64,000 bases of DNA from the NCBI GenBank assembly GCA_964458855.1, contig CAYWJS010000003.1, positions 1,957 through 65,956 on the forward strand. Direction: 5' to 3'. Positions 1-18,682 of the stretch are shown here, in pieces. The position numbers were made by a program, and so were the translations under genes. Every line of letters starts with the position of its first letter. Positions within the stretch are counted from its first letter, which is position 1. Source of the DNA: an uncultured Erysipelotrichia bacterium (lineage in GTDB: Bacteria > Bacillota_I > Bacilli_A > CAYWJS01). The notes beneath the pieces were generated by a model, which searched no databases, was not told the DNA's origin, and saw nothing but the letters and a program-made list of their open reading frames with translations.

Positions 1-293
1 CTACAGACAGTCATTATATTGATATTAAATCTGAGTTAGCAGACTGTAATAATTCCTTAATTCCTATAGTCCATAAATGGGCTGAATTTAATAAAGATTT
101 ACTTAGATGTTATTTCATTGATTGGAAAAGCTGCTATATTAACCAGAATGTATTGGATGGAACTCAATGGGAGCTTAATGTTACATTTGATAATGGTACA
201 ACAATTAAGCGTTATGGCAGTAATGCCTATCCACCCCATTGGGAAAAATTGATTGCGGCGTTTCATAAATACGGATTGCCTATAATTAGATGA
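1..293 (+). CDS. Partial CDS (C-terminal fragment, 5' end outside window), hypothetical protein; stop TGA at 291-293, 16 nt upstream of mcrB
   Basis: Open frame from window edge translating ...NGTTIKRYGSNAYPPHWEKLIAAFHKYGLPIIR*; same strand and GC-richer composition as mcrBC; no family recognised. Confidence 0.4.
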   Translation, partial: TDSHYIDIKSELADCNNSLIPIVHKWAEFNKDLLRCYFIDWKSCYINQNVLDGTQWELNVTFDNGTTIKRYGSNAYPPHWEKLIAAFHKYGLPIIR

Positions 294-309
294 TTAGAGG
301 TGAAAAGAT

Positions 310-2919
310 ATGGATTCAAATATTCAATTAAAAAATCAATTTGCCTGGACTTCTTTTTATATGGAGTTTGCTGATAAACTGTTGCCATATAAAAATAATC
401 GTTCGCACCTTCTTGAGTTGTTAAAAGACGTTTATAACGATTTAGGATTGCGCTATCCGTTTATAGAAAAGGACGGTATGCTGATTGACGATATTTGCCC
501 GTTTACCGTATTTGGCTGTTTTAATAAAGGGATTTCCAATGAAAATCGTATTGCTTTGATGAAAGGCATTGGCAGTAAACTCGGTGTTAAGACTTCAGTG
601 CCTACAGAATTTGACGGCATTCCGGTACTTAACAACATGAAGGCTTGGTTTTTCGCCGGTAAAAGTGAGCGAAAAGAAGATGACATTCCCAACCTATGGG
701 ACACATTTGAAGCCGGATTAAACTATGCAGACAATCCGTCAGAAGTCTCCAAGTCAGCATTTATAGCCTGTTATGATAAAGTAAGAAAGCAATTTGGAAT
801 TAAGTGGAATTTAACTATGGGACTGTATTGGATACGCCCCTTTTCCTACTTAAACCTTGATGATCGTAACAGAAGTTATCTGACACAAGATAGCTCTCCT
901 TATTATGCAAGTATTACTAAAATTTCTAACTTAAAGCAGCCTCCAAGTGCAAAAACCTATTTAGATCTCATTACTGTATGTAAAGAAATCTTTGCAAAGA
1001 GCGACAGTCCTTATCACAGTTTTCCCGAACTGTCCCACATAGCATGGGCTACAACAACTTCGGGAGCACGGAATAACAATATCACTTCAACCGCTAATAA
1101 AAAAATAGGCTGGATTTTTCAAGGTAATCCTAAATACTATGATGTTATGGGTGCTATTAAGGATCTTGATGTTGTAACATGGAGCGTAAAGCAATACCAA
1201 AACCAGATCAAAAAAGGCGATCGCGCTTATATATGGGTTTCAGGCCCTGAGGGTGGCATTGTTGCTTCAGGAGTTATTCTCTGTGACCCAGAAATCAGGG
1301 AAAATAATGAGCCTGACCCCTATGATCTTTCTGGCGATATAAGTACAGGAGAACGTCTTGTCGTAGATATTGAACTTACCCAAAAAATAACGGATGCTGT
1401 TATTAAGAGAGAAGATTTCTTAGCGGATGAACGCCTAAAAAACGCAAATATTATTTCTTTCCCAAATGTAACAAATTCTAGATTGACTTCCGAGCAGGCC
1501 GATGTTATAGACAGCATTATCAACGGCACCTATATACGTATAGAGCCAAAGAATTCAGATGAAACATCAGCCCCTTTAAGACGATACTGGATTTATGCCC
1601 CCGGCAGCAATTCTTCCAAATGGGAAGAGTTTTACTCTCAAGGAATTATGGGTATTGGATGGGATGAATTAGGCGACCTTAAACAATACCCCAGCAAAGA
1701 TGCCATGAAAGCCAAAATGAAGGAACTGTATGGCGCTGAATACTCATATATTAACTCAGTCCTTGCCACATGGCAGTTTGCTAATGAGATTAAAGTCGGC
1801 GATATTGTTTATGCAAAAAAAGGCATGCATAAAGTAATCGGGCGTGGCATAGTTGAATCCGACTATATTTTTAACGCAGATCGCGATGAGTATAAACATA
1901 TTCGTAAAATCAAATGGACACATAACGGGGAGTGGGAACACCCGGGACAAGCTGTCATGAAAACCCTTACCGACATAACTCCTTATACTGATTATGTACA
2001 AAAACTAGAAGCGCTCTTTATTGATGATGACTCTGTAGATATTGAAGAAAAAGAAATTGTGTATGAGTCCTACACCGAAGATAACTTCCTCAATGAAGTT
2101 TTCATGGATGCCGAACGTTACAATACTTTGGTTAATCTCTTAAAAACCAAGAAAAACATCATCCTGCAAGGAGCGCCCGGCGTTGGTAAAACTTTTGCTG
2201 CCAAAAGACTTGCTTTTTCCATAATGGGGCAAAAAGATACAAGCCGCGTTATGATGGTTCAATTCCATCAAAGTTACAGCTATGAAGACTTTATTATGGG
2301 ATTCCGGCCAACCAAAGACGGATTTGAGCTTACCCCCGGGCCTTTTTACCAGTTCTGCAAAACAGCACAGGATGACGATGAACGGGATTATTTCTTTATC
2401 ATTGACGAAATTAACCGCGGCAATGTAAGCAAAATTTTTGGTGAGTTGATGATGCTTATAGAAAAGGAAAAACGCGGTGAAAAACTACGCCTTCTTTACT
2501 CCAACGAGTTATTTTCTGTTCCCAAAAATCTCTACATTATCGGTATGATGAATACTGCCGACCGCAGCCTTGCCATAATCGATTATGCTTTGAGAAGAAG
2601 ATTCGCTTTCTTTGAACTCGAGCCTGCTTTTGACTCTGAAGGATTTAAAAAAATTATACAGCAAGCAAACAACCCCAAGTTTAATGCCCTGGTTGAGCAA
2701 ATTAAAGCTTTGAATGACTTTATCTGCAAGGATGAATCCCTTGGCAGTGGGTTCAGAATTGGACACAGTTATCTGTGCACAAATAGTGAGGTAACCGACG
2801 AATGGCTGGAATCCGTTATTAAGTATGAATTGTTGCCTCTTTTAAACGAATATTGGTTTGACGAACCATCCAAAATAGAACAGTGGACAAAAAGGCTGAG
2901 TGAGGTTTTATATGATTAG
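310..2919 (+). CDS. mcrB: McrB-like AAA+ GTPase subunit of a type IV (modification-dependent) restriction system, with a long N-terminal extension carrying two PUA-like (EVE/YTH-type) reader domains
   Basis: ORF track 869 aa; Walker A GAPGVGKT (nt ~2170-2193), McrB signature MMNTADRS, RBS GAGGTG before ATG; N-terminal segments with W/GD/G-rich beta-barrel-like pattern. Confidence 0.85.
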   Translation: MDSNIQLKNQFAWTSFYMEFADKLLPYKNNRSHLLELLKDVYNDLGLRYPFIEKDGMLIDDICPFTVFGCFNKGISNENRIALMKGIGSKLGVKTSVPTEFDGIPVLNNMKAWFFAGKSERKEDDIPNLWDTFEAGLNYADNPSEVSKSAFIACYDKVRKQFGIKWNLTMGLYWIRPFSYLNLDDRNRSYLTQDSSPYYASITKISNLKQPPSAKTYLDLITVCKEIFAKSDSPYHSFPELSHIAWATTTSGARNNNITSTANKKIGWIFQGNPKYYDVMGAIKDLDVVTWSVKQYQNQIKKGDRAYIWVSGPEGGIVASGVILCDPEIRENNEPDPYDLSGDISTGERLVVDIELTQKITDAVIKREDFLADERLKNANIISFPNVTNSRLTSEQADVIDSIINGTYIRIEPKNSDETSAPLRRYWIYAPGSNSSKWEEFYSQGIMGIGWDELGDLKQYPSKDAMKAKMKELYGAEYSYINSVLATWQFANEIKVGDIVYAKKGMHKVIGRGIVESDYIFNADRDEYKHIRKIKWTHNGEWEHPGQAVMKTLTDITPYTDYVQKLEALFIDDDSVDIEEKEIVYESYTEDNFLNEVFMDAERYNTLVNLLKTKKNIILQGAPGVGKTFAAKRLAFSIMGQKDTSRVMMVQFHQSYSYEDFIMGFRPTKDGFELTPGPFYQFCKTAQDDDERDYFFIIDEINRGNVSKIFGELMMLIEKEKRGEKLRLLYSNELFSVPKNLYIIGMMNTADRSLAIIDYALRRRFAFFELEPAFDSEGFKKIIQQANNPKFNALVEQIKALNDFICKDESLGSGFRIGHSYLCTNSEVTDEWLESVIKYELLPLLNEYWFDEPSKIEQWTKRLSEVLYD

Positions 2920-3946
2920 AATTCAAAATATATACTATATGCTTGCTTATGCTTTTCATGTCTTAAATGAAGAAGGCTATAAACAAGTAGCAACTGAAGA
3001 TTTCGAATATACTTCTGATTTATTTGCAGCAATTCTTTCCAAAGGTATTGCCAGCCAAATCAAAAGGGGATTAAGTAGGGAGTATATCAGCAAAACAGAA
3101 GCCGTTATTTCACCTACAGGTAAAATCAATGTCTCAGCCTCCATTGTACAGAATTCCATGCTTAAAAAGAAACTGGTCTGTGATTATGATGAGTTTACAG
3201 AAAACAGTTACTTGAATAAAATACTCAAAACCACTGCAATGCTTTTGATACGCTGTCCGGAAGTATCAACGCAGCATAAAAAAGCCTTAAGGAAAACAAT
3301 GCTTTATTTCAGTAATGTTGATGAAATAAATCCGCGCAGAATTCAATGGTCGAGTATCAGATACCATAGGAATAATGCCACCTATAAAATGCTGCTGAAT
3401 ATCTGCTATCTAGTTATCGAAGGTATGCTAATGACCGAGCAGGACGGTTCCCGAAAGTTGGCCCGCTATGTAGACGACCAGCGTATGCCCAGGCTTTATG
3501 AAAAATTTGTGTTGGAATATTATCGTAGGCATTATCCCCAGTTTAATGCTTCATCCACCATTATTGACTGGGATGTCGACGGTGGAGAAATAGAATATTT
3601 ACCTACTATGAAATCAGATATAACTCTTCGATATCGGGGCAAAACACTCATTATAGACACAAAATACTATAAGAAGACCATGCAGATAAACAGCTTGTTC
3701 AACAGCCGAACAATCCATTCTCACAATTTGTATCAGATATTTACTTATGTAAAAAACATGGATTTAGCTCGTTCGGGAAATATAAGCGGCCTTTTGCTTT
3801 ATGCCAAAACTGATGAAGATATTGTACCGGACAACGATTATATTATCGGCGGTAATCGTATTAGCGTTAAAACTTTGGACTTGAATACTGACTTTTCCAA
3901 CATATCAAAACAGTTGAACGCAATAGTAGAAAAGATGTTATTATAA
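2912..3946 (+). CDS. mcrC: McrC-like nuclease subunit (PD-(D/E)xK) of the McrBC system
   Basis: ORF track 2900..3946 starts at GTG; more likely ATG at 2912 with RBS GAGGT, overlapping mcrB stop (ATGATTAG); N-terminal IRIQNIYYMLAYAF typical of McrC; catalytic-like motif IIDTKYYKK. Confidence 0.8.
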   Translation: MIRIQNIYYMLAYAFHVLNEEGYKQVATEDFEYTSDLFAAILSKGIASQIKRGLSREYISKTEAVISPTGKINVSASIVQNSMLKKKLVCDYDEFTENSYLNKILKTTAMLLIRCPEVSTQHKKALRKTMLYFSNVDEINPRRIQWSSIRYHRNNATYKMLLNICYLVIEGMLMTEQDGSRKLARYVDDQRMPRLYEKFVLEYYRRHYPQFNASSTIIDWDVDGGEIEYLPTMKSDITLRYRGKTLIIDTKYYKKTMQINSLFNSRTIHSHNLYQIFTYVKNMDLARSGNISGLLLYAKTDEDIVPDNDYIIGGNRISVKTLDLNTDFSNISKQLNAIVEKMLL

Positions 3947-4002
3947 TCATGTGTTTTATCGCATAAAGATAATAAGCAGTAATACATCCATCCTGTATCC
4001 TC

Positions 4003-4025
4003 AACCCCCTATAAAAAAGGGGGTT
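4003..4025 (+). terminator. Hairpin downstream of mcrC (aaccccc-loop-gggggtt), putative intrinsic terminator
   Basis: Inverted repeat read directly; T-tract after the stem is weak. Confidence 0.35.
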
Positions 4026-4279
4026 ATCTAATCTGGTAACTCAACTATTAATTTTCAGGGTGGTTGATATGTTCCCGCAAACAATAAAAATAAGGGTTTC
4101 CTGACATTGCCTCATTCGGCAGATCGGCCTCGAGAAAAACTAAATGTCTGGAAACCCTTTATTTACAAGCATTTTTAACTTTCTATTTATCTACCCTTGT
4201 CATCAATACCACGCACTCAACATGGTATGTAAATTTATTTTCACCAATTTTTGTAATTATTACGCGTGATAAAATACAT

Positions 4280-4564
4280 TCATTCGCTACCATCTATTGA
4301 ATCTTTAATAATATCTATATAATTCTGTTCTTTTATATCTGTATATAATACTTCTTTCTTTTCTCCAATATCAGTTGGTAAAAGATTAGTATTATTTGTT
4401 AAATATATTTGGGCTTGCTTTACTAATAGCTCTTCATTCCTACGAAAAGCATTAAAACGATTCTTTTGAATAAGTGATGAAAAACTTGGGATTGCTATTG
4501 CAAGAATCAAACCCAGAATAACAATAACTGCAAGAAGTTCAATTAAAGTAAAACCTCGACTCAT
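4280..4564 (-). CDS. Prepilin-type N-terminal cleavage/methylation domain protein (type IV pilin or ComGC-like pseudopilin)
   Basis: 94 aa; MSRG|FTLIELLAVIVILGLILAIAIPS class III signal/hydrophobic helix; strong RBS AGGAGG; ends with TGA stop. Confidence 0.7.
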   Translation of the reverse strand: MSRGFTLIELLAVIVILGLILAIAIPSFSSLIQKNRFNAFRRNEELLVKQAQIYLTNNTNLLPTDIGEKKEVLYTDIKEQNYIDIIKDSIDGSE

Positions 4565-4631
4565 AATGCTTCCTCCTCATTAAGTTTCAAATTAATATTA
4601 GCGCAAAAACCATCATAAATAAACATTTGCA

Positions 4632-4663
4632 CTTAAAATAAAAAGCCAAAATTTATTTTTGGC
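4632..4663 (-). terminator. Rho-independent terminator after rpe
   Basis: Stem agccaaaa/ttttggct with loop, followed by a T-run on the minus strand. Confidence 0.55.
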
Positions 4664-4667
4664 TTAG

Positions 4668-5321
4668 TTATTTATTTCGTAATGAATTAATTGCCCCTTC
4701 TAAATTATTTTGTTTCAATAAATAATTACCAGATACTAAGATATCGGCACCACTTTCAATTGCAAGAGGAGCGGTAATATTATTAATTCCTCCATCTACT
4801 TCAATCAAAACATCTAAATTGTTTTTAATAATTTCTTTCTTTGCTTCCTTTATTTTTTCTAAAGAAAATTTTATAAACTCTTGACCACCTTTTCCTGGTT
4901 CAACTGACATAATTAATAATAAGTCAATTTCTTTTAATAAGTGTTTTATTTCAGAAACACTTGTTTTTGGTTTAATTGAAATACCACATTTTATTTTTTC
5001 TTTTTTTATCATTTTAATTAAATTATAGATATTATTCTTTATTGCTGCTTCATAATGAAAAGTTATAATTTCTGGTTTTATTTCAATATATTCTTTAATT
5101 TTTTCTTCCAAACTTTCAATCATTAAATGAACATCTAATTTCTTTTTGGATATTTTTTTTACCTTTTTTATAAGATCAATAGGAAAAGTTTTATTAGGAA
5201 CAAATTTTCCGTCCATAACATCAATATGAATATATTCACATGAGGTATTATTAAGAGAGTTTATAGTTTCTTCAATCTTATTAAAATCTGTTGAAAGAAT
5301 TGATGGAGAAATTTTTACCAT
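4668..5321 (-). CDS. rpe: Ribulose-phosphate 3-epimerase
   Basis: 217 aa; HIDVMDGKFVPN and overall Rpe pattern. Confidence 0.9.
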   Translation of the reverse strand: MVKISPSILSTDFNKIEETINSLNNTSCEYIHIDVMDGKFVPNKTFPIDLIKKVKKISKKKLDVHLMIESLEEKIKEYIEIKPEIITFHYEAAIKNNIYNLIKMIKKEKIKCGISIKPKTSVSEIKHLLKEIDLLLIMSVEPGKGGQEFIKFSLEKIKEAKKEIIKNNLDVLIEVDGGINNITAPLAIESGADILVSGNYLLKQNNLEGAINSLRNK

Positions 5322-5322
5322 A

Positions 5323-6195
5323 TTAATACCTCGGCTTTCTCTGTTTTATTTCTTCTGCAAATTTTAAGTAATTCTCATATCTACTAGATAAAATTCTTCC
5401 TTCTTCTAGTAGTTTTTTTATATTACAACCATCTTCTTCTATATGATTACAATTGCGATACTTACATTCACTTGCATTATCAAAAAATTCAGGGAAACTG
5501 TTACGTAAATCTTCTAGTTCTAATTCATTAAAATCAAGTTTTGAAAATCCTGGAGTATCTGCAACAAGTCCCCCTTGAATATTAATTAATTCAACATGAC
5601 GAGTAGTATGACGTCCTCTTCCTAAAGTTTTTGAAATAGGGCTTGTTTTAAGTTTAAAATTTTTATCTAAAGCATTTAATATACTACTTTTTCCTACCCC
5701 ACTTTGACCTGCAAGTACTGTTATTTTATCTTTAAATAAATTATTTAAAAGATTTATATTTTCTTTTGTTTTTGTTGATACCAATGTTGTTTTATAACCT
5801 ATATTTTCATAGTAATTTGCAAGGCTTTCTAAATTTTTTCGCTCTTTTTCGTTTAAAAGATCAATTTTATTAATAATAACAACCACATCAATATTTTTAA
5901 ACGTTACTGTTACTAGTATCTTATCTAATAAATTTAAACTTAATTCTGGTTCTTTTGCACTCATTACAACTATTGCTTGATCAACATTTGCAATAGGTGG
6001 TCTGATAAGAAAGTTTTTACGTGGAAGAAGTTCCATAATATAACCTTCTTTTTCATTAAACTTCACATAATCGCCAACTAGTAGTTTTATATTATCTTTT
6101 CGAAAAACTCCTCGACCTCGGCAAAAATATATTTTACTATCTGCAAGAACCAGAAAATTTCCGCTATCAGATTTTGTTATTATTCCTTTTATCAT
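5323..6195 (-). CDS. rsgA: Ribosome small-subunit-dependent GTPase A (RsgA/CpgA)
   Basis: GQSGVGKSSILNAL P-loop, C-terminal Cys/His zinc finger; ORF track extends to 6273 but overlaps prkC, so start taken at the internal Met just after the prkC stop. Confidence 0.85.
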   Translation of the reverse strand: MIKGIITKSDSGNFLVLADSKIYFCRGRGVFRKDNIKLLVGDYVKFNEKEGYIMELLPRKNFLIRPPIANVDQAIVVMSAKEPELSLNLLDKILVTVTFKNIDVVVIINKIDLLNEKERKNLESLANYYENIGYKTTLVSTKTKENINLLNNLFKDKITVLAGQSGVGKSSILNALDKNFKLKTSPISKTLGRGRHTTRHVELINIQGGLVADTPGFSKLDFNELELEDLRNSFPEFFDNASECKYRNCNHIEEDGCNIKKLLEEGRILSSRYENYLKFAEEIKQRKPRY

Positions 6196-6196
6196 A

Positions 6197-7981
6197 TTAT
6201 TCAGATTCATCTTCTGAAATTTCTTCCCCTTCTTCTGGAAATTCTGGTATTTCTTCTTCTGGGGCAAGGGCAATTTGAACTCTTAATGACGCACCTTTTA
6301 CAATATTTGTTCCTGGAGGTCTGTCTTGCCAAATAACAGTATCTGGTTCATGCTCTAATGTTTCAACATATTCAATACTTAGTTTCAACTCGTAATCTTC
6401 AGCAAATGCTTTTACCGCTTCTTCCGTCCAACCCTCTGCCATCATATCAGGGTATTTTAAAATCACATCTGGAATATATAAAGTTATTTCATCACCTGGT
6501 TTTAATAAGGTTCCTGGCTTTACAGATTGCCTAATAATTAAATCTGGATTAATACTTTTATCTTTTACTTCTTCTTTTTCAATAAAAACATTCAAACCAT
6601 ATATTTCCTCAAGTCTAACTTTTACAACATCATAATCTTGACCAACATAATCTTCAATTTCAATAGTTAGTTTTCCTTTTGATTCATAAATAATAACTTT
6701 TGTATTTTTCTTTACTGTTCTACCAGCTCGTGGACTAGTTCTTGTTACTAATCCCTTTTCAATTGTTTCGCTGTATTCTGATATAACTTCAAGTTCAACA
6801 TCAAGACCAGCATTTATCAATTTACGCTCCGCTTCAACAACACTCATTCCTGAAACATCAGGTACAACTACTTCTGAAACTTTAAAAATAATTGGAACAA
6901 TAAAGAAAATTAATAATACTAAAGCACATAATCCAGCAAAAATACTTCCTAAAATAATTATTGTTTTTTTATCTTGATTTCTCAAAACTGGTCCCCTACT
7001 TTCTAAAGTTTTTGTCTCTTCTGTTTTTGTTTGTTCTTCCTTTGAAACTTCTTTTTCTTTTTGAATTTTCTCTAATTCTTGTATTAAATCTTTTGTTTTT
7101 CTATTTGTATCAAAATATGCATATTCATATCTATTTTCATTTTCTCTTTGTTCATCAAGAACTGTTTTTAAGTCTTCAAACATTTCTTTCGTTCTATTAT
7201 AGCGATTTTCCTCATTTTTCGCGCAAGCTTTTAAAATTACATTTTCTACACTTTGCGGAATTGCAGGATTTATTTCTCTTACACTTGGAATTGGTTCATT
7301 AATGTGTTTCATGATAACATTTATTGGACTATCTCCATCAAATGGAAGTCTTCCTGTTAAAAGTTCAAACATTAAAATTCCCAAAGAATAAATATCAGAT
7401 TTAATATCAATTTTATCACCTGATGCACGCTCTGGTGCCATGTAATAAACTGAGCCCATTACTGAATCTGTTCGTGTAAGTTTTGAAGCATTTATTGCAA
7501 CAGCTAAACCAAAATCAGTAATTTTTACCGTTCCATCTTTTTGAATAATAATATTTTCTGGTTTTATATCACGATGAACTATTAAAGAAGAGTGAGCTTT
7601 AGAAAGTCCATCTGTCAACTGTTGCATAATGTCAACAACTTCCGTAATAGTTAAAGCTCCTCGCTCTTTAATCAACTTTTTCAATGTTTTTCCTTCAATA
7701 TATTCCATAACAATGTAATAATGACCATTATCTTCTCCGACATCGTAAATATCTACGATGTTTTTATGATGGAGGCTACTTGCTGATAAAGCTTCTCTTT
7801 GAAATCTTTTTAAAAAGTCTTCATTTGAAGCAAGTTCTCCTCTAAGAATCTTTATTGCTACCTTGCGATTTAAAACAGTATCATTTGCAAGGTAAACATT
7901 CGCCATACCACCTTCACCTATTAATCTTAAAATTTGATAACGTTCATTAATCATTGTTCCAATTACAAGCATATTACTCAC
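6197..7981 (-). CDS. prkC: Ser/Thr protein kinase with extracellular PASTA repeats (PrkC)
   Basis: 594 aa; kinase motifs HRDIKPENI, DFG, APE; single TM; C-terminal PASTA-like repeats. Confidence 0.9.
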   Translation of the reverse strand: MSNMLVIGTMINERYQILRLIGEGGMANVYLANDTVLNRKVAIKILRGELASNEDFLKRFQREALSASSLHHKNIVDIYDVGEDNGHYYIVMEYIEGKTLKKLIKERGALTITEVVDIMQQLTDGLSKAHSSLIVHRDIKPENIIIQKDGTVKITDFGLAVAINASKLTRTDSVMGSVYYMAPERASGDKIDIKSDIYSLGILMFELLTGRLPFDGDSPINVIMKHINEPIPSVREINPAIPQSVENVILKACAKNEENRYNRTKEMFEDLKTVLDEQRENENRYEYAYFDTNRKTKDLIQELEKIQKEKEVSKEEQTKTEETKTLESRGPVLRNQDKKTIIILGSIFAGLCALVLLIFFIVPIIFKVSEVVVPDVSGMSVVEAERKLINAGLDVELEVISEYSETIEKGLVTRTSPRAGRTVKKNTKVIIYESKGKLTIEIEDYVGQDYDVVKVRLEEIYGLNVFIEKEEVKDKSINPDLIIRQSVKPGTLLKPGDEITLYIPDVILKYPDMMAEGWTEEAVKAFAEDYELKLSIEYVETLEHEPDTVIWQDRPPGTNIVKGASLRVQIALAPEEEIPEFPEEGEEISEDESE

Positions 7982-8720
7982 CTACACCCATTTCAATATA
8001 GGCAACTGAAATATTATCAGTGCCACCTTTTTTATTAGCAGTTTTAATTAAATACATAACTTTATCATCTATTTCTAAATTTGCAGTTAAGATATTGTAG
8101 ATTTCACGATTAGTTAGCATCTCTGTTAAACCATCACTACAAAGTAAAAGTCCATCTATTTCTTTTGATACCTCAAAAATATCCATATTTGACTTTAGTC
8201 CTGCCCCCAGTGCTCGCATTAAGACGTTTTTTTGCGGATGATTATGAGCACCTAAGCTGTTAATTTCACCACTTTGAACAAGCATATTTACTAAAGTATG
8301 ATCTGTTGTAACTTGAAGAATATCTTCATCTTTTAAAATGTAAGCCCTACTGTCACCAACATTACCTACTATAATATAATCACGAGTAATAATGGCAGCA
8401 ACTAAAGTTGTTCCCATTCCTTCACAACGGGGATCAAGCTCAATTCTATCAAGGATTAAGTTAGTTATCTCTTTTGCTTCTTGTTTTAGCCAAGCAGCAG
8501 CTTGCTTTTTATCACCAATTGATTCTAATTTTCCCCATTTGCGACTAATATTGCTAATTGCTATTTCAGATGCAATCTCTCCAGCATTATGTCCTCCCAT
8601 TCCATCAGCAACTGCCATTAAATATTCACCAGATAAATTTTTTACAATAATAACACTATCTTCATTATGATTTCTTACTTTTCCAGTATCAGTCGCGTAA
8701 AAAAAATCCACATCAACCAC
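7974..8720 (-). CDS. prpC: PP2C-family Ser/Thr phosphatase (PrpC/Stp)
   Basis: 248 aa; ADGMGGHNAGEIAS motif; 8-nt overlap with prkC as in the conserved operon. Confidence 0.9.
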   Translation of the reverse strand: MVDVDFFYATDTGKVRNHNEDSVIIVKNLSGEYLMAVADGMGGHNAGEIASEIAISNISRKWGKLESIGDKKQAAAWLKQEAKEITNLILDRIELDPRCEGMGTTLVAAIITRDYIIVGNVGDSRAYILKDEDILQVTTDHTLVNMLVQSGEINSLGAHNHPQKNVLMRALGAGLKSNMDIFEVSKEIDGLLLCSDGLTEMLTNREIYNILTANLEIDDKVMYLIKTANKKGGTDNISVAYIEMGVGE

Positions 8721-9755
8721 CTATTTCCTCGTTTCATTAATTCTTAATTGACCACAAGCAGCATTAATATCAGATCCCTTTTCTCTTCTAATTGTAGCAC
8801 TAATTCCGTGTTTTTTCAAAACATCATAAAATTCTAAATACCTTGTTTTTAATGCTCGCTTAAAACCGGTTTCAGCTACATCATTATATGGTATTAAATT
8901 AACATAAGCATTAAGCCCCGAAATTAGCTTTGCAAGTTCTTTGGCATGTTCTAAAGAATCATTAATATCATGAAGTAGAATATATTCAAATGTTACACGC
9001 CGATTAGTTTTTTTAATATAATAACGAACTGCCTTTATAATTTCTTCTATTGGATACACTTTATTTATTCTCATTAATTTATTTCGAATTTCATTATTTG
9101 GAGCATGAAGACTAATGGCAAGATTTACTTGCAATGGAAAATCACTAAACTCATAAATCTTTGGTACAATGCCACATGTTGAAACTGTTATATGACGTGC
9201 TCCAATACCTAAACCTAAAGGATTATTTATAATTTTTATAAATTTCAAAACATTTTCATAATTATCAAAAGGCTCACCAATTCCCATAATAACAACATGT
9301 GAAAGTCGTTCATTATTTTTTACTAACTCTTTTTGAACTTTTATTACTTGTTCTACAATTTCCCCTGCTTTTAAATTTCTTACCTTTCCTTTTAATCCAC
9401 TCGCACAAAACGCGCATCCCATATTACAACCAACTTGGGTTGAAACACAAACGCTTAAACCATAATTATGACGCATTAACACAGTTTCTATTAATGAATC
9501 ATCTGACAGTCTAAATAAGTATTTTTCTGTTTTATCTTCCGACACCATTTTTTTTACAAGTTCTAGTGATGAAATATAAAAATTTTCTTTTAATAAATCT
9601 ATTGTTTCTTTTTTTACATTTTTAATTTCCTCGTAAGAACCAATAAAATTTTGATAAAGCCAATTATATAGTTGTTTAGCAACAAATTTTTTGCTTTCTC
9701 TATTTAATAAAAACTCTTCTAAGTCTTCTAAAGTTAAGCTATAAATACTCTCCAT
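8721..9755 (-). CDS. rlmN: 23S rRNA/tRNA adenine-C2 methyltransferase RlmN (radical SAM)
   Basis: 344 aa; CNMGCAFCASG radical-SAM cluster motif; position upstream of prpC-prkC. Confidence 0.9.
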   Translation of the reverse strand: MESIYSLTLEDLEEFLLNRESKKFVAKQLYNWLYQNFIGSYEEIKNVKKETIDLLKENFYISSLELVKKMVSEDKTEKYLFRLSDDSLIETVLMRHNYGLSVCVSTQVGCNMGCAFCASGLKGKVRNLKAGEIVEQVIKVQKELVKNNERLSHVVIMGIGEPFDNYENVLKFIKIINNPLGLGIGARHITVSTCGIVPKIYEFSDFPLQVNLAISLHAPNNEIRNKLMRINKVYPIEEIIKAVRYYIKKTNRRVTFEYILLHDINDSLEHAKELAKLISGLNAYVNLIPYNDVAETGFKRALKTRYLEFYDVLKKHGISATIRREKGSDINAACGQLRINETRK

Positions 9756-9856: not shown

Positions 9857-10804
9857 TACAAGCTTTGCCCCATTATCACACTTGTTTCCCCACGAATCAA
9901 TTAGTTCGTGATCTTTATAAACACATATTATCTCACAATTATTAGCACATACCTTGCACTCAACTCCCCGCGTTATAAAATCTATCTCAGCAAGTGAAAA
10001 ATTAAATGGTTTAGGACTCGTTGTATCTTTTGCCATAATAGCAACTCCTAAGGCCCCCATTAAATGTCCATTTTTATCAACATAGATTTTTTCACCAAGA
10101 ATTTTTTCAAAAGCTTGAACAACTCCAATATTTTTGCTTACACCACCTTGAAAAACAATTGGTGGTTTTATATTTTTGCCTTTACCAACATTATTTAAAT
10201 AATTTGCTACAACCGCCTCACAAAGTCCTGCAATAATATCTTCTTTTGAGTGTCCTATTTGGGCTTTGTGGACTAAATCACTTTCTGCAAAAACTGTACA
10301 ACGAGCAGCAATTTTGGTTGGTGTTTTTGATTTTTGAGCCCAAAGGCCAAATTCTTCAACTGGAATACCAAGCCTTCTTGCTTGCGAACTTAAAAAAGAA
10401 CCTGTTCCTGCGGCACACAATGTATTCATAGCATAATCAATAACTATTCCGTTTTCAATTAAAATAATTTTTGAATCTTGCCCACCAATTTCAAAAATTG
10501 TTTTTACATCAGGAAAAATACTTAAGGTTCCAATTGCATGTGCTGTAATTTCATTTTTTACAAGTCCTGCATCAAGAATTGTGCCAATTAGTTTTCGAGC
10601 AGAACCAGTTGTTCCAACATAACTTATCTTAATATTTTTATCACTTACTTGCTTATAAAGTAATTTTATTAAATTTTTGACTGCTTGAATTGGATTTCCT
10701 TCAGTCCAAATATATTCACTAGCAATTATGTTGTTATTTTTATCAACAATTACTCCTTTTGTTGAAATTGAACCAACATCAACTCCCAGTGCATATTCAG
10801 TCAT
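9842..10804 (-). CDS. BadF/BadG/BcrA/BcrD-type ATPase, CoA-substrate-specific enzyme activase (HgdC-like)
   Basis: 320 aa; N-terminal LGVDVGSISTKGVIV actin-fold ATPase motif, GGQDSK, C-terminal Cys cluster. Confidence 0.75.
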   Translation of the reverse strand: MTEYALGVDVGSISTKGVIVDKNNNIIASEYIWTEGNPIQAVKNLIKLLYKQVSDKNIKISYVGTTGSARKLIGTILDAGLVKNEITAHAIGTLSIFPDVKTIFEIGGQDSKIILIENGIVIDYAMNTLCAAGTGSFLSSQARRLGIPVEEFGLWAQKSKTPTKIAARCTVFAESDLVHKAQIGHSKEDIIAGLCEAVVANYLNNVGKGKNIKPPIVFQGGVSKNIGVVQAFEKILGEKIYVDKNGHLMGALGVAIMAKDTTSPKPFNFSLAEIDFITRGVECKVCANNCEIICVYKDHELIDSWGNKCDNGAKLVKVSK

Positions 10805-11873
10805 ATCGCTTTTCCTTTCTCATAAGAAGCATATCATAAAAGGCTTCTAATCTTGTTTTTACACCTGTCTCTGAAGTATGAGCATCAAAACTAAAATATA
10901 AAATGGGAATCTTATAATCATTACTTAAATTTTGCAGTATCGGTATTGCATTAACCTCAGGAGTGCATCCAAATGGTTTGATATGAATTATGCCATCAAA
11001 CTCAAGTTCAGCTAAGATTTTAGTACGAGCAACACTATCAGTTCCATCTGCACCAATTGGATATTTTAAATATTTTCCCGCATTTTTTAATAACTTTTTT
11101 TCTAACTTCGCTTTTTCAAATAAAAGATATGTTATATTCATAAATCTTGTTACCTGAATTCCTTTTTGAGCAAGTTCTTTTTCAATAAAATAATTACTAA
11201 AAGGCTCCATTAATACATATAACTCTCCTAATACTCCAATCCTAATTGGATTTTTAGGTTTATCTGTTTCTATGCTTTTAAAAAGTTTTAAATAGTTTCT
11301 TTTTAACTTTAAAAGATCTATAAATCCTTTAGTGTGTTTTAAATCTTCTAAAAATTTTTTACGCAGTCTTTCAAAACTTCCCTTTTCTTTTTCAAATCAC
11401 ACATTTTCTCGAATATAAAACTCTATTTCATCAAGAATGTAAGCCATTTTAATAGCAAGTAAAACATAATATAAAAACTTAAAAAATGAAAGTTTATTGT
11501 TCAATTTTCTAAAACTTTTAAAAAGAGTAATTGGTGTTACTTTTCCACTGCTACAAATATCAATAAATTCAAAATTATAACCTAAATCTTTTAAAATTTG
11601 CTCTTGAATTTCTCCATAATAACCAAACCTGCAACCACCACCTGCTTGTAAAATAATATCAGCCCCTAACTCCAGTGCTTCTATATAATTTCCTAAGTTA
11701 TATTTAAAAGGAATACAAACAAATTCTGGACTATATTTTGCTCCAAGTTCCAAAGTTTTTTTTGTAATTGGTGGCGGTACTAATACTTCAAAATCAAGGG
11801 TTTTGCGTGCTAAATACTCAAACACAACATGATAACTTCCCATATGCGGAAAAGTAACTTTTTTCTTTTTCAT
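10797..11873 (-). pseudogene. 2-hydroxyacyl-CoA dehydratase-like / DUF2229-type gene interrupted by a single in-frame TGA (minus-strand codon at 11397-11399); ORF-track fragments 11397..11873 and 10797..11210 are one frame
   Basis: Hand translation shows 62 sense codons with no candidate start between the TGA and the downstream Met, including a conserved-looking IRIGVLGELYVL strand. Confidence 0.4.
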
Positions 11874-15381: not shown

Positions 15382-17187
15382 TTACACTCTTTGTTTTAAT
15401 TCAAAATATAAAAGCGAAACTGTTGGTGGAAGGGCAAAAAGAATTGGTAAAATATAGCGGAAATAAGTGTTCACAGGACCAGCAACACAAGCAAGAATTA
15501 TAGAAAGTGCTGGAAGTATTACCGTAATATATTTACTATTTTTATTTACAATTAAAATCACTAAAATTAATAAATAAATCCAAACAATAACACCAATATT
15601 AACAATTAAACCAACAATTGGAACATATGGAAATGCTTCACCTATTCCTATTAAAATATTACGTCCAAATTCTAAGGAATCAATGTAGTGATAATCAAAT
15701 CCATCCTTTACCATATTAGGATTCATTCTATAATAAATATACCATCTACTAGTATTTGGATAAAAATACCCATAAACATTACTTATTGTCGCATCAAAAT
15801 AAGCACTTGGATGTCTAAAAAACATTTTAAACCAAACTTTAAAATATTGTTTTAGTTCTTCCCTTGTTGTATATTTATTATATTTATTTTTAACTGGATC
15901 AGATAAATCCGGTTGGTAGTTCTCTGCTAAGGTGTCATATTCTAAAATGTGATCAATTATTTTTCTTTCTTCTTCTGTTACATCATCACCATGATATTTT
16001 ACGTATCGTGCAGTTTGCTGAAACGGAATTGATAAAGCTTCTCTTATACTTGTATTTGGGATTTTAAAGTAAGGTAATAAAACATTGTTATAAGCAATAT
16101 AAAACAAAACATTTACAAAGAAAACTATTATTAATGGTTTTCTTGATTTTGATAAGATAAAAAACAATGCTGGAAAACTTAAAACAATTGTATAAATTCC
16201 ATTATTTCTAAACAAAGTTACAAGTAAAATGATTAATCCTAAAATAATATAATCTTTTATTGTTTGTTCGTTTTTTAATAAATTATAAAGTTTAATTACA
16301 TAAAGTACTATTAAAGAACTAAAAATTACATCTTTTACTGCTGTCATTGCATAAAAAGGAAAAACTGGAATTAAGGCATAGATTAAAAGTGCACCAATAA
16401 CAAAATTATCATGTACTTTTGCTTTTTTAAGATAAACAATAGTATAAGCAAAAACACTTATAACAATTGATAATTGAATAATTGTATAAAGAAATAGCCC
16501 AAAATTTTGATTACCTAATGTATACCCAAATTTAAATAATCCTCCAAGTAAAAATGTATGAATTAAGGGATTAAAATTAGTAAGTGTTACAGATTCATCT
16601 AACAAGATAACACTATCCAAGTAAAATGTATGAAGTCCTAACATTTCTCTTATTTGGTAACCACCATCATAATTTAAAATTACTGGATAAAAACAAATTA
16701 TATATGGTAAATAACAAATAAAAATGAAAAGGAAACTAAATAAAAAGGGGTGCTTATCTAAATATTTTGTTATTTTGGGAAAATAGTTCTTAAAATCTCT
16801 TTTTGTTACTAAATATCCATATAATAAATTTATTCCTAAATTAAAAAAAACAAAATAGCTAACTAGTCTTGCTAAAGCAATAATAAAAAATAATATATTT
16901 CCAAATACTAAGGAACTATCCCCAACCACATCATAACTATGGAATAAAACCATAAAAATACTAAAAATAAATGCTAACAGTGATAAAAGAAATTGAGAAT
17001 TTACTTTAAATAAATATTTTTTATAAAGAAAAAATACGGAAACAGCTATTAAACAAGCAGTTAATACTCCCGTGTTATTGCGAACAAATTCATAACTTGG
17101 GTAAGCAAGTTCAACTGTTAAGCTAAATGCTGTAAGAATGCTTAAAATAAGTGCAATAAAAATTCTTTTGTTTTTCATATTAACCAC
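15382..17187 (-). CDS. Large polytopic membrane protein, putative GT-C-type glycosyltransferase (YfhO/Gtr-like)
   Basis: 601 aa, >10 predicted TM helices; operonic with GtrA-like and GT2 genes. Confidence 0.5.
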   Translation of the reverse strand: MVNMKNKRIFIALILSILTAFSLTVELAYPSYEFVRNNTGVLTACLIAVSVFFLYKKYLFKVNSQFLLSLLAFIFSIFMVLFHSYDVVGDSSLVFGNILFFIIALARLVSYFVFFNLGINLLYGYLVTKRDFKNYFPKITKYLDKHPFLFSFLFIFICYLPYIICFYPVILNYDGGYQIREMLGLHTFYLDSVILLDESVTLTNFNPLIHTFLLGGLFKFGYTLGNQNFGLFLYTIIQLSIVISVFAYTIVYLKKAKVHDNFVIGALLIYALIPVFPFYAMTAVKDVIFSSLIVLYVIKLYNLLKNEQTIKDYIILGLIILLVTLFRNNGIYTIVLSFPALFFILSKSRKPLIIVFFVNVLFYIAYNNVLLPYFKIPNTSIREALSIPFQQTARYVKYHGDDVTEEERKIIDHILEYDTLAENYQPDLSDPVKNKYNKYTTREELKQYFKVWFKMFFRHPSAYFDATISNVYGYFYPNTSRWYIYYRMNPNMVKDGFDYHYIDSLEFGRNILIGIGEAFPYVPIVGLIVNIGVIVWIYLLILVILIVNKNSKYITVILPALSIILACVAGPVNTYFRYILPILFALPPTVSLLYFELKQRV

Positions 17188-17191
17188 CCCA

Positions 17192-17620
17192 TCAATTCCC
17201 GTGTTTAATAAAAATAATATATTTTTGAATTAAATAATTTACAACAAAAATCACTATATCAACAACAACTTTTATAATTGTAGCATTTATTTTTATTAAA
17301 TTGTAGATGGAAGATACTAAAAAGCCTGACAAAAACATTTGAATAATTACTAACAAATAATATTGAAAAACTGTTTTTCTTTCAATTGGTTTTCCATATA
17401 CATTAAAAACAAGATTTTTATTTAATAAATAGTTTATAAATGATGATATAATTCTTGCTAAAATAGTTGCAGCAATAATTATATCTAAACTAGTAATATT
17501 TTTTAATAAGTTATAAAAGAAAGTAAAAAGTAAAATATCTACACAAAAAGATATTCCAGCAGAAATAATATATTTTAAAAATGTTTTATAGTTATTTATT
17601 ACTTTCTTTAATTTTTTCAT
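17192..17620 (-). CDS. GtrA-family small membrane protein (lipid-linked sugar translocation)
   Basis: 142 aa, four TM helices, typical GtrA size and context. Confidence 0.55.
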   Translation of the reverse strand: MKKLKKVINNYKTFLKYIISAGISFCVDILLFTFFYNLLKNITSLDIIIAATILARIISSFINYLLNKNLVFNVYGKPIERKTVFQYYLLVIIQMFLSGFLVSSIYNLIKINATIIKVVVDIVIFVVNYLIQKYIIFIKHGN

Positions 17621-17963
17621 TTTCTAAATCCCCAACTCTTTTTTTCAAAATACTTAATTCTTGAACTAAAGATACTATTTCCATCTTTTGATGTGAAACA
17701 ATACTTGTTAAAATAAAACAAATGAATAACAAAATAATAAATCCTAAAAGGAAAACAAAATTTGAAGCAACTTCAATACCTATTAAATTTGCAACTTTTT
17801 GTAGAAAATTAGGAATTAAAGCTGCAACAAGCATTACAATTGGAAAACCAAGCCATGGTAAAGCATATTTAATTAAAATTTTCCCTTTTAAAATTAAACG
17901 ATATACAAAAAACATAAATATTAAACAAAAAAATATTAAAAATATTGTTAATTTTACTGGCAT
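17592..17963 (-). CDS. Small membrane protein (DUF2304-like) associated with the GT2 gene
   Basis: 123 aa, three hydrophobic segments; immediately downstream of GT2. Confidence 0.45.
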   Translation of the reverse strand: MPVKLTIFLIFFCLIFMFFVYRLILKGKILIKYALPWLGFPIVMLVAALIPNFLQKVANLIGIEVASNFVFLLGFIILLFICFILTSIVSHQKMEIVSLVQELSILKKRVGDLENEKIKESNK

Positions 17964-17965
17964 TT

Positions 17966-18682
17966 TTACTTCCCTTTCCCTTCTGAAACTGTTTTTATAA
18001 TAATTGCAATACTTACTTTTATCATAAAATATAATGTTTTTAAACTTCGAATTGAACTTCTTCCAGTTTGTCGTTCTTTCATTTCTACTGGAATTTCTGA
18101 ATGTTTATAATTATTCTTTATAACTGTAACAATCGAAACAGGTTCTGCATAATCAATTAGGTAGTCATGTGCAAATAATTTAATAACCTTTTTGTTACAA
18201 GCACGAAAACCACTAGTTGGATCATAAATTCTTGTTTTTGTACACCAATAAATTAAATTAGATAAAAATCCAATTCCTATTCTCCTTGTTTTAGTTGATC
18301 TAAATTTGCTTAATTTTTGAACAAAGCGAGAACCAATAACAATATCATAACCTTTATTTATTTCTGAAATTAACTTTTCAATATAGCTTGCTTCATGTTG
18401 ACCATCACCATCAAATTGAATAGCAATATCATAATCATTATATAATGCATATTTATATCCAGTTTGTACTGCCCCACCAATTCCTACATTAAATGGTAAG
18501 TCAATAAAATTAATATTATTTTTAAGACAAACTTCTTTTGTATTATCCGTTGAACCATCATTGATAACAACATAATCCAACTCAACATTTTTTATTTGAA
18601 GTTTCTTTAGGTTATTAACAACTGATAAAATACTATCCTCTTCGTTATATGCGGGAATAATTATTAATACTTTCACTTTCAC
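17966..18682 (-). CDS. Family 2 glycosyltransferase, polyprenyl-phosphate sugar transferase (GtrB/CsbB-like catalytic domain)
   Basis: 238 aa; IIIPAYNEE, INDGSTDNT, DGDGQH motifs. Confidence 0.8.
   Translation of the reverse strand: MKVKVLIIIPAYNEEDSILSVVNNLKKLQIKNVELDYVVINDGSTDNTKEVCLKNNINFIDLPFNVGIGGAVQTGYKYALYNDYDIAIQFDGDGQHEASYIEKLISEINKGYDIVIGSRFVQKLSKFRSTKTRRIGIGFLSNLIYWCTKTRIYDPTSGFRACNKKVIKLFAHDYLIDYAEPVSIVTVIKNNYKHSEIPVEMKERQTGRSSIRSLKTLYFMIKVSIAIIIKTVSEGKGK

Follow-up and report, generated by a model that had tools for sequence, protein, structure and literature searches.

A McrBC type IV restriction system in the cargo slot of a probable temperate phage end in an uncultured Erysipelotrichia bacterium

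Composition of the island and its host flank

The window analysed here is a stretch of 64,000 nucleotides (nt) from an uncultured Erysipelotrichia bacterium (contig CAYWJS010000003.1). Its first 4.2 kb form a G+C-rich island with mcrB and mcrC, the genes of a McrBC type IV restriction system, on the plus strand, and we interpret this island as the probable end of an integrated temperate phage. The host flank (4226-4564, minus strand) begins with a spacer of 54 nt and an orphan prepilin-like gene with an N_methyl motif (4280-4564), followed on the same strand by rpe, rsgA, the genes of a PASTA kinase and a PP2C phosphatase, and rlmN.

In bins of 1 kb, the G+C content is 35-41% in each bin across positions 1-4000 and 22-33% in all 60 bins after them; at a resolution of 200 nt the fall lies between about 4200 and 4300. 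Positions 1-4222 have 37.8% G+C, compared with 28.3% for 4223-64000 (z = 6.5, relative to 278 windows of the same size from the remainder, with a maximum of 31.1%). The G+C content of third codon positions (GC3) is 0.375 in mcrB and 0.378 in mcrC, and 0.12-0.18 in the six minus-strand neighbours (the pilin-like gene, rpe, rsgA, pknB, the PP2C gene and rlmN). A preliminary description of this DNA had proposed that the first 4.2 kb or so are richer in G+C and carry plus-strand mcrB and mcrC against a minus-strand housekeeping background. The quantitative plot agrees with the first point and gives a sharp step near 4.2 kb, and the open reading frames (ORFs) with their Pfam and NCBIfam matches agree with the second. 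The island itself therefore stands, although its end, placed at 4270 in that description, has to be moved to 4217-4225.

The McrBC genes

The mcrB gene (310-2919, plus strand) is a single ORF of 869 amino acids (aa), with three N-terminal domains followed by an AAA+ GTPase motor. It lies upstream of mcrC (2900-3946, plus strand) with an overlap of 20 nt. The latter encodes 348 aa from GTG at 2900, or 344 aa if ATG at 2912 is the start, and its product is the activator and PD-D/ExK nuclease subunit. McrB matches the Pfam families AAA_5 (E = 7e-24) and EVE (E = 5e-7, 30.3 bits for a cut-off of 23), and its residues 586-863 align with the GTPase of Escherichia coli McrB (PDB 6hz4, E = 3e-89, 278 residues). 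Walker A (GAPGVGKT, 2170-2193), Walker B (FIIDEINR, 2395-2418) and the NTAD signature (NxxD, 2548-2568) are all kept. The NCBIfam McrB model matches the GTPase part only and scores 305 bits, below its cut-off of 637, because the N-terminal region differs from the E. coli reader. McrC matches the Pfam family McrBC (PF10117, E = 3e-35) and the NCBIfam McrC equivalog (383.7 bits, cut-off 338), aligns over its full length with E. coli McrC (6hz4_M, E = 5e-38), and keeps the catalytic D...D-x-K residues in SDITLR (3614-3631) and IIDTKYY (3650-3670).

Where E. coli McrB has an N-terminal DUF3578/ADAM reader of 5-methylcytosine, the present protein has a region of 585 residues composed of DUF8425, EVE and DUF8426. 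Residues 1-250 (310-1059, plus strand) form a confidently modelled helical domain, assigned to DUF8425 in precomputed Pfam hits. The EVE (PUA-like) domain, the presumed reader of modified bases, occupies residues about 265-410 (1102-1539, plus strand; Pfam match at residues 268-400) and is modelled with low confidence (50-75). DUF8426, at residues about 425-570 (1582-2019, plus strand), is a beta-alpha barrel with a predicted local distance difference test score of about 90 and the order beta-alpha-beta-alpha-alpha-beta-beta-beta-beta in the model; PADLOC PDC-S02 models match residues 427-539. The McrB model gives fold matches to EVE, YTH and ASCH structures, the aligned domain of the model not being reported by the tools. 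Judging from the model, DUF8426 may be a second PUA-like domain. A profile comparison of EVE with DUF8426 returned a probability of 95.7%, but with an out-of-register alignment and with EVE columns that mix domain types. The N-terminal region has matches in more than 5000 database proteins (E < 1e-5), and the ones listed among them share the DUF8425...DUF8426-McrB scaffold; in sister McrB proteins the middle domain is absent or exchanged for an Mrr_N winged helix.

EVE-McrB is the commonest prokaryotic EVE fusion and is abundant in Firmicutes (Bell et al. 2020, PMC7641849; McrBC census PMC11090510). The protein described here has the same EVE domain N-terminal to the McrB GTPase and no essential difference from this family. 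It also shares with the E. coli K-12 system (PDB 6hz4, 6ut6) the GTPase motifs, the McrC nuclease motif, the gene order and the overlap. The module thus looks like an intact but quite ordinary type IV restriction system from a family with many members, its motor and nuclease being close to those of E. coli. By analogy with that system, the N-terminal reader domains of McrB (EVE, and perhaps the second PUA-like domain) would bind DNA with modified bases and the AAA+ domain would form GTP-dependent hexamers. McrC would bind these hexamers, stimulate GTP hydrolysis and cut the DNA at its PD-D/ExK site. The same mcrBC pair was also seen on a contig of an archaeal metagenome-assembled genome (MAG) of Methanomethylovorans (L038, 5418-9102), with 82% DNA identity and 91% identity of the McrB protein; this copy reflects either a cross-domain transfer or a binning error.

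Horizontal origin and strain variability

Positions 4-4225 share 96-98% DNA identity with a 3.4-Mb contig of a Christensenellales MAG (L018), with a Clostridia MAG (L020) and with the isolate Alkalithermobacter thermoalcaliphilus (L026). Identity is 96% with a Caldicoprobacterales MAG (L019), up to position 4164, and 88% over 241-4175 with the isolate Sporotomaculum syntrophicum (L021). The G+C content of the element is 38-39% in L018, L019, L020 and L026 and 41% in L021, and that of the adjacent host DNA is 52% in L018, 42% in L019, 42-45% in L020, 25-34% in L026 and 28% in the window. L018, L020 and L026 all stop at the end nucleotide of the island, ...CACTCAAC(A/G)TG(G), and beyond it each has an unrelated flank.

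In other samples, about 20 contigs match the window at 99-100% identity through rpe and the pilin-like gene and are for this reason taken as conspecific. They have the same host flank up to the junction and different DNA past it. One of them (L015, GCA_029780625.1) keeps 3985-4225 and then continues into an M78-like gene and hsdR. Three further diverged versions of the end, with other cargo, are found in L004, which has a methylase, in L012, and in L007 with L016. A conspecific MAG (GCA_012841885.1) has proteins labelled as from a Tenericutes or Mycoplasmatota bacterium. The comparison with close relatives that the preliminary description had called for thus finds other DNA beyond the same junction, and not the same genes at the locus. 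The island is atypical in composition, absent in conspecific strains and nearly identical to DNA of distant taxa. The G+C step, the change of cargo among conspecific strains and the 96-98% identity to unrelated Clostridia bear out the horizontal acquisition that had been thought likely, and a horizontal origin is strongly supported by these sequence comparisons.

Upstream of mcrB, positions 1-293 (plus strand, open at the window start) hold the 3' part, codons about 129-224, of an ORF of 224 aa whose intact product matched no Pfam, NCBIfam or PADLOC family. In L018, L019 and L020 the gene order is a 794-aa type I methyltransferase, hsdS, the 224-aa ORF, mcrB and mcrC. In the window's strain, a type I hsdM of which the truncated 5' end is left abuts the remnant ORF at about positions 1-4. 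Relative to L018, 3364 bp (6331-9694) are missing, with a GCAT microhomology at the joint, at about position 4. Positions 1-4041 are matched at 100% identity by a Logan contig from SRR8925798 (L001), which reaches 1144 bp further upstream and carries there a helix-turn-helix (HTH) gene, a 263-aa ORF with an HSDR_N_2 domain and the start of an M78-like gene. A deletion at the microhomology appears to have removed hsdM and hsdS in the window's strain and spared McrBC. The unknown gene noticed earlier in front of mcrB is accordingly a real ORF, although only the 3' remnant that the deletion left of the 224-aa ORF. Likewise, the further defence genes suspected upstream exist in the relatives, as the hsdM-hsdS pair, and not in the window's strain, where they were lost with the 3.4-kb deletion. 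The window begins within 3 nt of the joint between hsdM and the 224-aa ORF, and since the two coincide, the source contig probably starts at an assembly branch point.

The immigration control region of E. coli K-12 consists of hsdRMS-mrr-mcrBC, and the same clustering of a type I restriction-modification system and McrBC in one variable island is found here. Unlike that region, the present cluster appears to be phage-borne, its McrBC copies have no adjacent hsdR, and in this strain hsdM and hsdS are deleted.

The conserved end and its junction with the host

Downstream of mcrC, positions 3947-3984 are found only with the McrBC cargo (L001, L018, L019, L020 and L026). The inner edge of the cargo slot lies at 3984/3985, and the conspecific L015 departs from the window exactly at 3984. 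From this edge runs a conserved phage end of about 240 bp, whose non-coding part (3985-4182) is kept whatever the cargo: it adjoins different cargo in L015, L109/L183, L180, L181, L184, L179, L176 and L182. An exact 22-mer from this end occurs in nine IMG/VR viral contigs. An imperfect 22-nt inverted repeat followed by a U-run (4087-4164, minus strand) resembles a terminator; it folds with -35.3 kcal/mol (z = -3.2), and none of 200 shuffled sequences folds as well. From its sequence and position, the hairpin looks like a terminator for a rumA reading frame that enters the element. A simple promoter and terminator scan of 1-4700 performed no better than on shuffled sequences and did not pick up this hairpin.

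The last 42 nt of the island (4183-4224, minus strand) are a rumA-like 3' fragment that encodes HVECVVLMTRVDK and a stop codon, which is the C-terminus of RumA/RlmD-type 23S rRNA uracil-5-methyltransferases. The intact RumA of L020 ends in ...EHVECVVMMSREK before the stop (...DMFPWTEHVECVVMMSREK). In the window, the 11th-last codon is the GAG at 4216-4218, and the fragment reads HVE-CVVLMTRVDK and stop. The variant ends of conspecific strains, translated by eye from the alignment, encode related and distinct peptides (VECVVMMSKVEK, HVETVCLMSRK and HVESVVLITRA). A genuine rumA flank is present in four of the nine IMG/VR contigs (L177-L180), which have at the junction the 5' part of rumA that is absent in the window; in L178 a complete rumA ORF reads into the element end, ...FDMFPNTYHVECVTLMSKVE. 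In several Gram-positive genera, elements with rumA-specific serine integrases insert after the GA of the 11th-last codon, and both tandem accretion and insertions at secondary sites have been reported for them (PMC4120198, PMC4701971). The junction of island and host, presumably the crossover region, lies at 4216-4225, and beyond 4224-4225 L018, L020 and L026 are no longer homologous to the window. A search of the locus for an integrase, a tRNA or an attachment site, as proposed in the preliminary description, found no tRNA and did find this rumA-type attachment point; serine recombinases were located at the far end of the element, in relatives only.

Beyond the junction, the 54-nt spacer reads in frame ...KFTY before HVE, resembling FPNTY before HVE in real rumA genes (NTY before HVE in L178), and it has partial nucleotide similarity to the rumA of L178. 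The spacer is either a relic of rumA or a look-alike site, being too short to tell. An Rfam search of 3947-4279 returned nothing at gathering thresholds, and an RNA gene in this interval was rejected, a relaxed search giving only a spurious match to a long non-coding RNA (E = 0.14). We had considered the end of a Tn7-like or Mu-like transposon in view of a terminal TGT and of three GTTGAG...AGATnGAT motifs within 3985-4222. This candidate was discarded: the motifs occur at one end only, no inverted copy of the end lies within the 22-kb relatives, no transposition genes are linked except an unrelated IS3 in L026, and the supposed terminus corresponds to the His-Val-Glu codons of rumA.

The corresponding junctions of the relatives vary. 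In L020, rumA is followed by a small, degenerate element whose serine recombinase is truncated, and after it come the rumA fragment and McrBC. In L026 (13920-14030), two stacked rumA-like half-sites (MDIFPPTDS... and AVDMFPRTD) precede a 34-bp insert before HVECV, with no body of rumA; they look like scars of repeated integration and deletion, and the arrangement in L176 is similar. In L018 (13908-15571), the phage end lies inside a response-regulator gene that lacks the first ~32 positions of its receiver domain. In L109/L183 the end is fused in frame to a 540-aa ORF for a membrane protein resembling a histidine kinase, identified by motifs only. These two insertions in two-component genes may be a coincidence or may reflect a preferred look-alike site.

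The phage family and its cargo slot

In L018, the genes to the left of the cargo are an M78/ImmA-like one and those of an SNF2 helicase and a DUF7307 protein. When metagenomes were scanned with the L018 protein farthest to the left, L109 was found, a contig with 100% identity to the IMG/VR fragment L183. L109 continues with DNA polymerase A, an anti-repressor (Ant), a primase, Abi_2, an HNH gene and the small terminase subunit (TerS). The IMG/VR contig 3300033167_000322 (L183, L187, L266 and L370) has a run of plus-strand ORFs and a large serine recombinase at the contig end; its downstream ORFs, judged by position and size and not by family searches, probably encode the large terminase, the portal and tail proteins. 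A second contig, 3300031485_000166 (L178 and L407; 21 kb), includes the 3' half of rumA, the 240-bp end, a LlaJI-type cargo and two serine recombinases of ~522 aa. The far end of the element thus has one or two serine recombinases of about 520-530 aa (L370, L407), oriented like rumA. For the window's strain, the phage genes seen are limited to its cargo and, through L001, to the HTH gene and the beginning of the M78-like gene. To judge from the relatives in which both end and immunity region are shared, a temperate phage family is the probable carrier.

The small-terminase gene of this family has 363 matching stretches in IMG/VR. In some members of the family (L195, 416-1267; L207, 691-3522), one or two extra serine recombinase genes lie about 4-6 kb upstream of that gene and may represent nested elements. 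Contig 3300031485_000166 is a defective prophage, in which the SNF2 helicase gene, cut at residue 308, adjoins a tail gene from residue 183 (L407, 9092-11932); the replication, packaging and head genes are lost, and the rumA end, the cargo and the recombinases are kept.

The content of the slot between the 240-bp end and the immunity genes (M78/ImmA-like and HTH) varies among copies. L018-L020 have type I hsdM/hsdS together with McrBC, and the window has the same kind of cargo with hsdM/hsdS deleted. Type III Mod/Res is found in L180, two methylases with a LlaJI-type AAA protein and nuclease in L109/L183, a helicase pair in L179, and the M78-like gene with hsdR in L015. L184 (oriented 816-2832) carries a TrkH/TrkA potassium-uptake pair and no restriction system, and L181 (oriented 4292-6347) has ORFs that match those of L184 in size and layout. 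The P2/P4 hotspots of E. coli are defence-gene hotspots of prophages and their satellites. As in those hotspots, unrelated defence cassettes appear to replace one another, among phages that are otherwise nearly identical, in a fixed slot between conserved phage sequences; the differences are the phage family, the anaerobic Firmicutes hosts, the position of the slot at the attachment-site end and the presence of non-defence cargo (TrkH/TrkA).

The elements with rumA-targeting serine integrases known from the literature are conjugative (PMC4701971, PMC4120198). The present family resembles vanG elements, ICE-r, CTn5 and Tn1549-type elements in having its junction at the GAG 11 codons before the rumA stop and a replacement RumA-like C-terminus. 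As in rumA-targeting elements generally, the serine recombinases lie at the opposite end, in the same direction as rumA (in the relatives), and tandem accretion and insertions at secondary sites occur. It differs from them in its apparent phage carrier, in a recombinase that is not fused to rumA codons and, at the window's site, in having no rumA.

Interpretation and alternative explanations

Taking these observations together, we think it likely that positions 1-4225 belong to an integrated temperate phage, or to a phage remnant, as its rumA-proximal end, with a cargo slot that holds the McrBC type IV system. Phages of this family would integrate at the 11th-last codon of rumA or at look-alike sites by means of the large serine recombinases of the far end. 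The phage end would supply a replacement RumA C-terminus (HVECVVLMTRVDK and stop) together with the terminator-like hairpin, and cassettes would be swapped in the slot between the 240-bp end and the immunity genes. In the window's strain, the microhomology deletion would then have taken hsdM and hsdS, leaving McrBC, and the lysogen would gain protection against phages and plasmids with modified bases.

Several observations weigh against this interpretation. The 64 kb of the window contain no rumA, and 54 nt separate the end of the pilin-like gene from the junction; with no rumA in the host flank, the insertion would be at a secondary site or next to a relic. In contrast to the streptococcal elements of the literature, the recombinase ORFs of the relatives have C-termini of their own instead of a fusion to rumA codons, and the 0.1-1.5 kb available downstream of them contain no 3' fragment of rumA, so that we infer the crossover and the enzyme responsible for it. 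The copy in this genome, of which only the cargo and the start of the immunity region were seen, may be a phage remnant. Moreover, no independent contig links McrBC to the flank of this host, the link being given by the window's own assembly only.

The last point leads to the possibility that the join of McrBC and host is an assembly artefact, in which the phage end of the host has other cargo, the crossover lies within a shared stretch of 120 bp, and McrBC belongs to another organism of the metagenome. Positions 3985-4104 are indeed identical in L018, L109, L180, L183 and L176, which have different cargo and hosts. The Logan unitigs of SRR8925798 break at 4041 (end of L001) and 4141 (start of L002), indicating branches. 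Exact copies of McrB and McrC were retrieved only on L001; a protein cluster table also places the exact McrB, rpe and RlmN proteins on an NCBI contig of 72,503 bp, presumably the source of the window. The conspecific contigs that cross the junction have other cargo or stop at 3985. Nevertheless, paired reads of 150 nt normally resolve a repeat of 120 bp, the deposited contig, of 72.5 kb, runs through the shared stretch, and assemblers break more often than they mis-join. In addition, the sequence has the host-specific type over 4105-4135 and full (100%) identity to L001 over 1-4041, which argues that a clean path exists. We therefore regard a chimera as improbable, and even with a mis-join the host has a putative phage end of this family at the site (L006, L015).

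Rather less probable still is a carrier other than a phage at this locus, that is, an integrative conjugative or mobilisable element, or a decayed island, with a rumA-type end and a slot. The conjugative nature of the published rumA-targeting elements (PMC4701971, PMC4120198) is in its favour, as are the existence of decayed copies (L026 has only McrBC beside an IS3, and L407 a large internal deletion) and the fact that no phage structural gene was seen for this strain. However, in all longer relatives with the same end and immunity region, genes for phage replication and packaging follow and conjugation genes were not seen, and L001 has the same HTH gene and M78-like start as the phage copies. 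A native, vertically inherited island that owes its composition to gene-specific constraints has practically no credibility. Nothing speaks for it beyond McrBC systems being common chromosomal genes, whereas the 96-98% DNA identity extends to other orders with adjacent G+C contents of about 25-52%, conspecific strains do not have the island at this locus, and the sharp boundary falls at a known recombinase target.

Beyond the phage end itself, it is possible, though we would not count on it, that one phage lineage, with at least 96% DNA identity over 8-14 kb, has integrated across several orders, using codon 11 from the end of rumA, or look-alikes of it, as a near-universal landing pad and acting as a community-wide shuttle of restriction cassettes by way of the single slot at its end. 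The hosts span a Christensenellales genome of 52% G+C and an organism of 28% G+C, for which a conspecific MAG is labelled Mycoplasmatota.

Other segments of the window

Two other segments of the window stand apart from the island. A 1.4-kb segment at 10008-11414 is present in the window and L002 and missing from the conspecific L003, L004, L005 and L012. Within it lie a 137-aa HGD-D gene and the greater part of a 320-aa BcrAD_BadFG activator gene, and it represents a second insertion or deletion at the strain level. Positions 15382-18682 have the lowest G+C content (22-23%) and a reversed AT skew; going by the annotation of an identical Logan contig, they encode DUF6020, GtrA-like, DUF2304 and glycosyltransferase proteins and may thus hold a surface-glycan cluster.

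Significance

The systems found here are of known kinds, namely EVE-McrBC, defence cargo of prophages and rumA-directed integration. The near-identity of phage end and cargo across dissimilar hosts could be the one aspect that goes beyond the ordinary. For the organism, the compositional island would be explained as prophage cargo with a nucleotide-precise boundary at a rumA-type attachment point, and in annotation the first 4.2 kb should not be taken as part of its core genome. A single shuttle lineage, if true, would point to a phage with an unusually wide range of hosts and to a definite path along which defence genes spread in anaerobic digesters. If the cross-order spread reflects real infections and not older transfers, this family would provide a concrete vehicle and a landing site for restriction systems in anaerobic communities.

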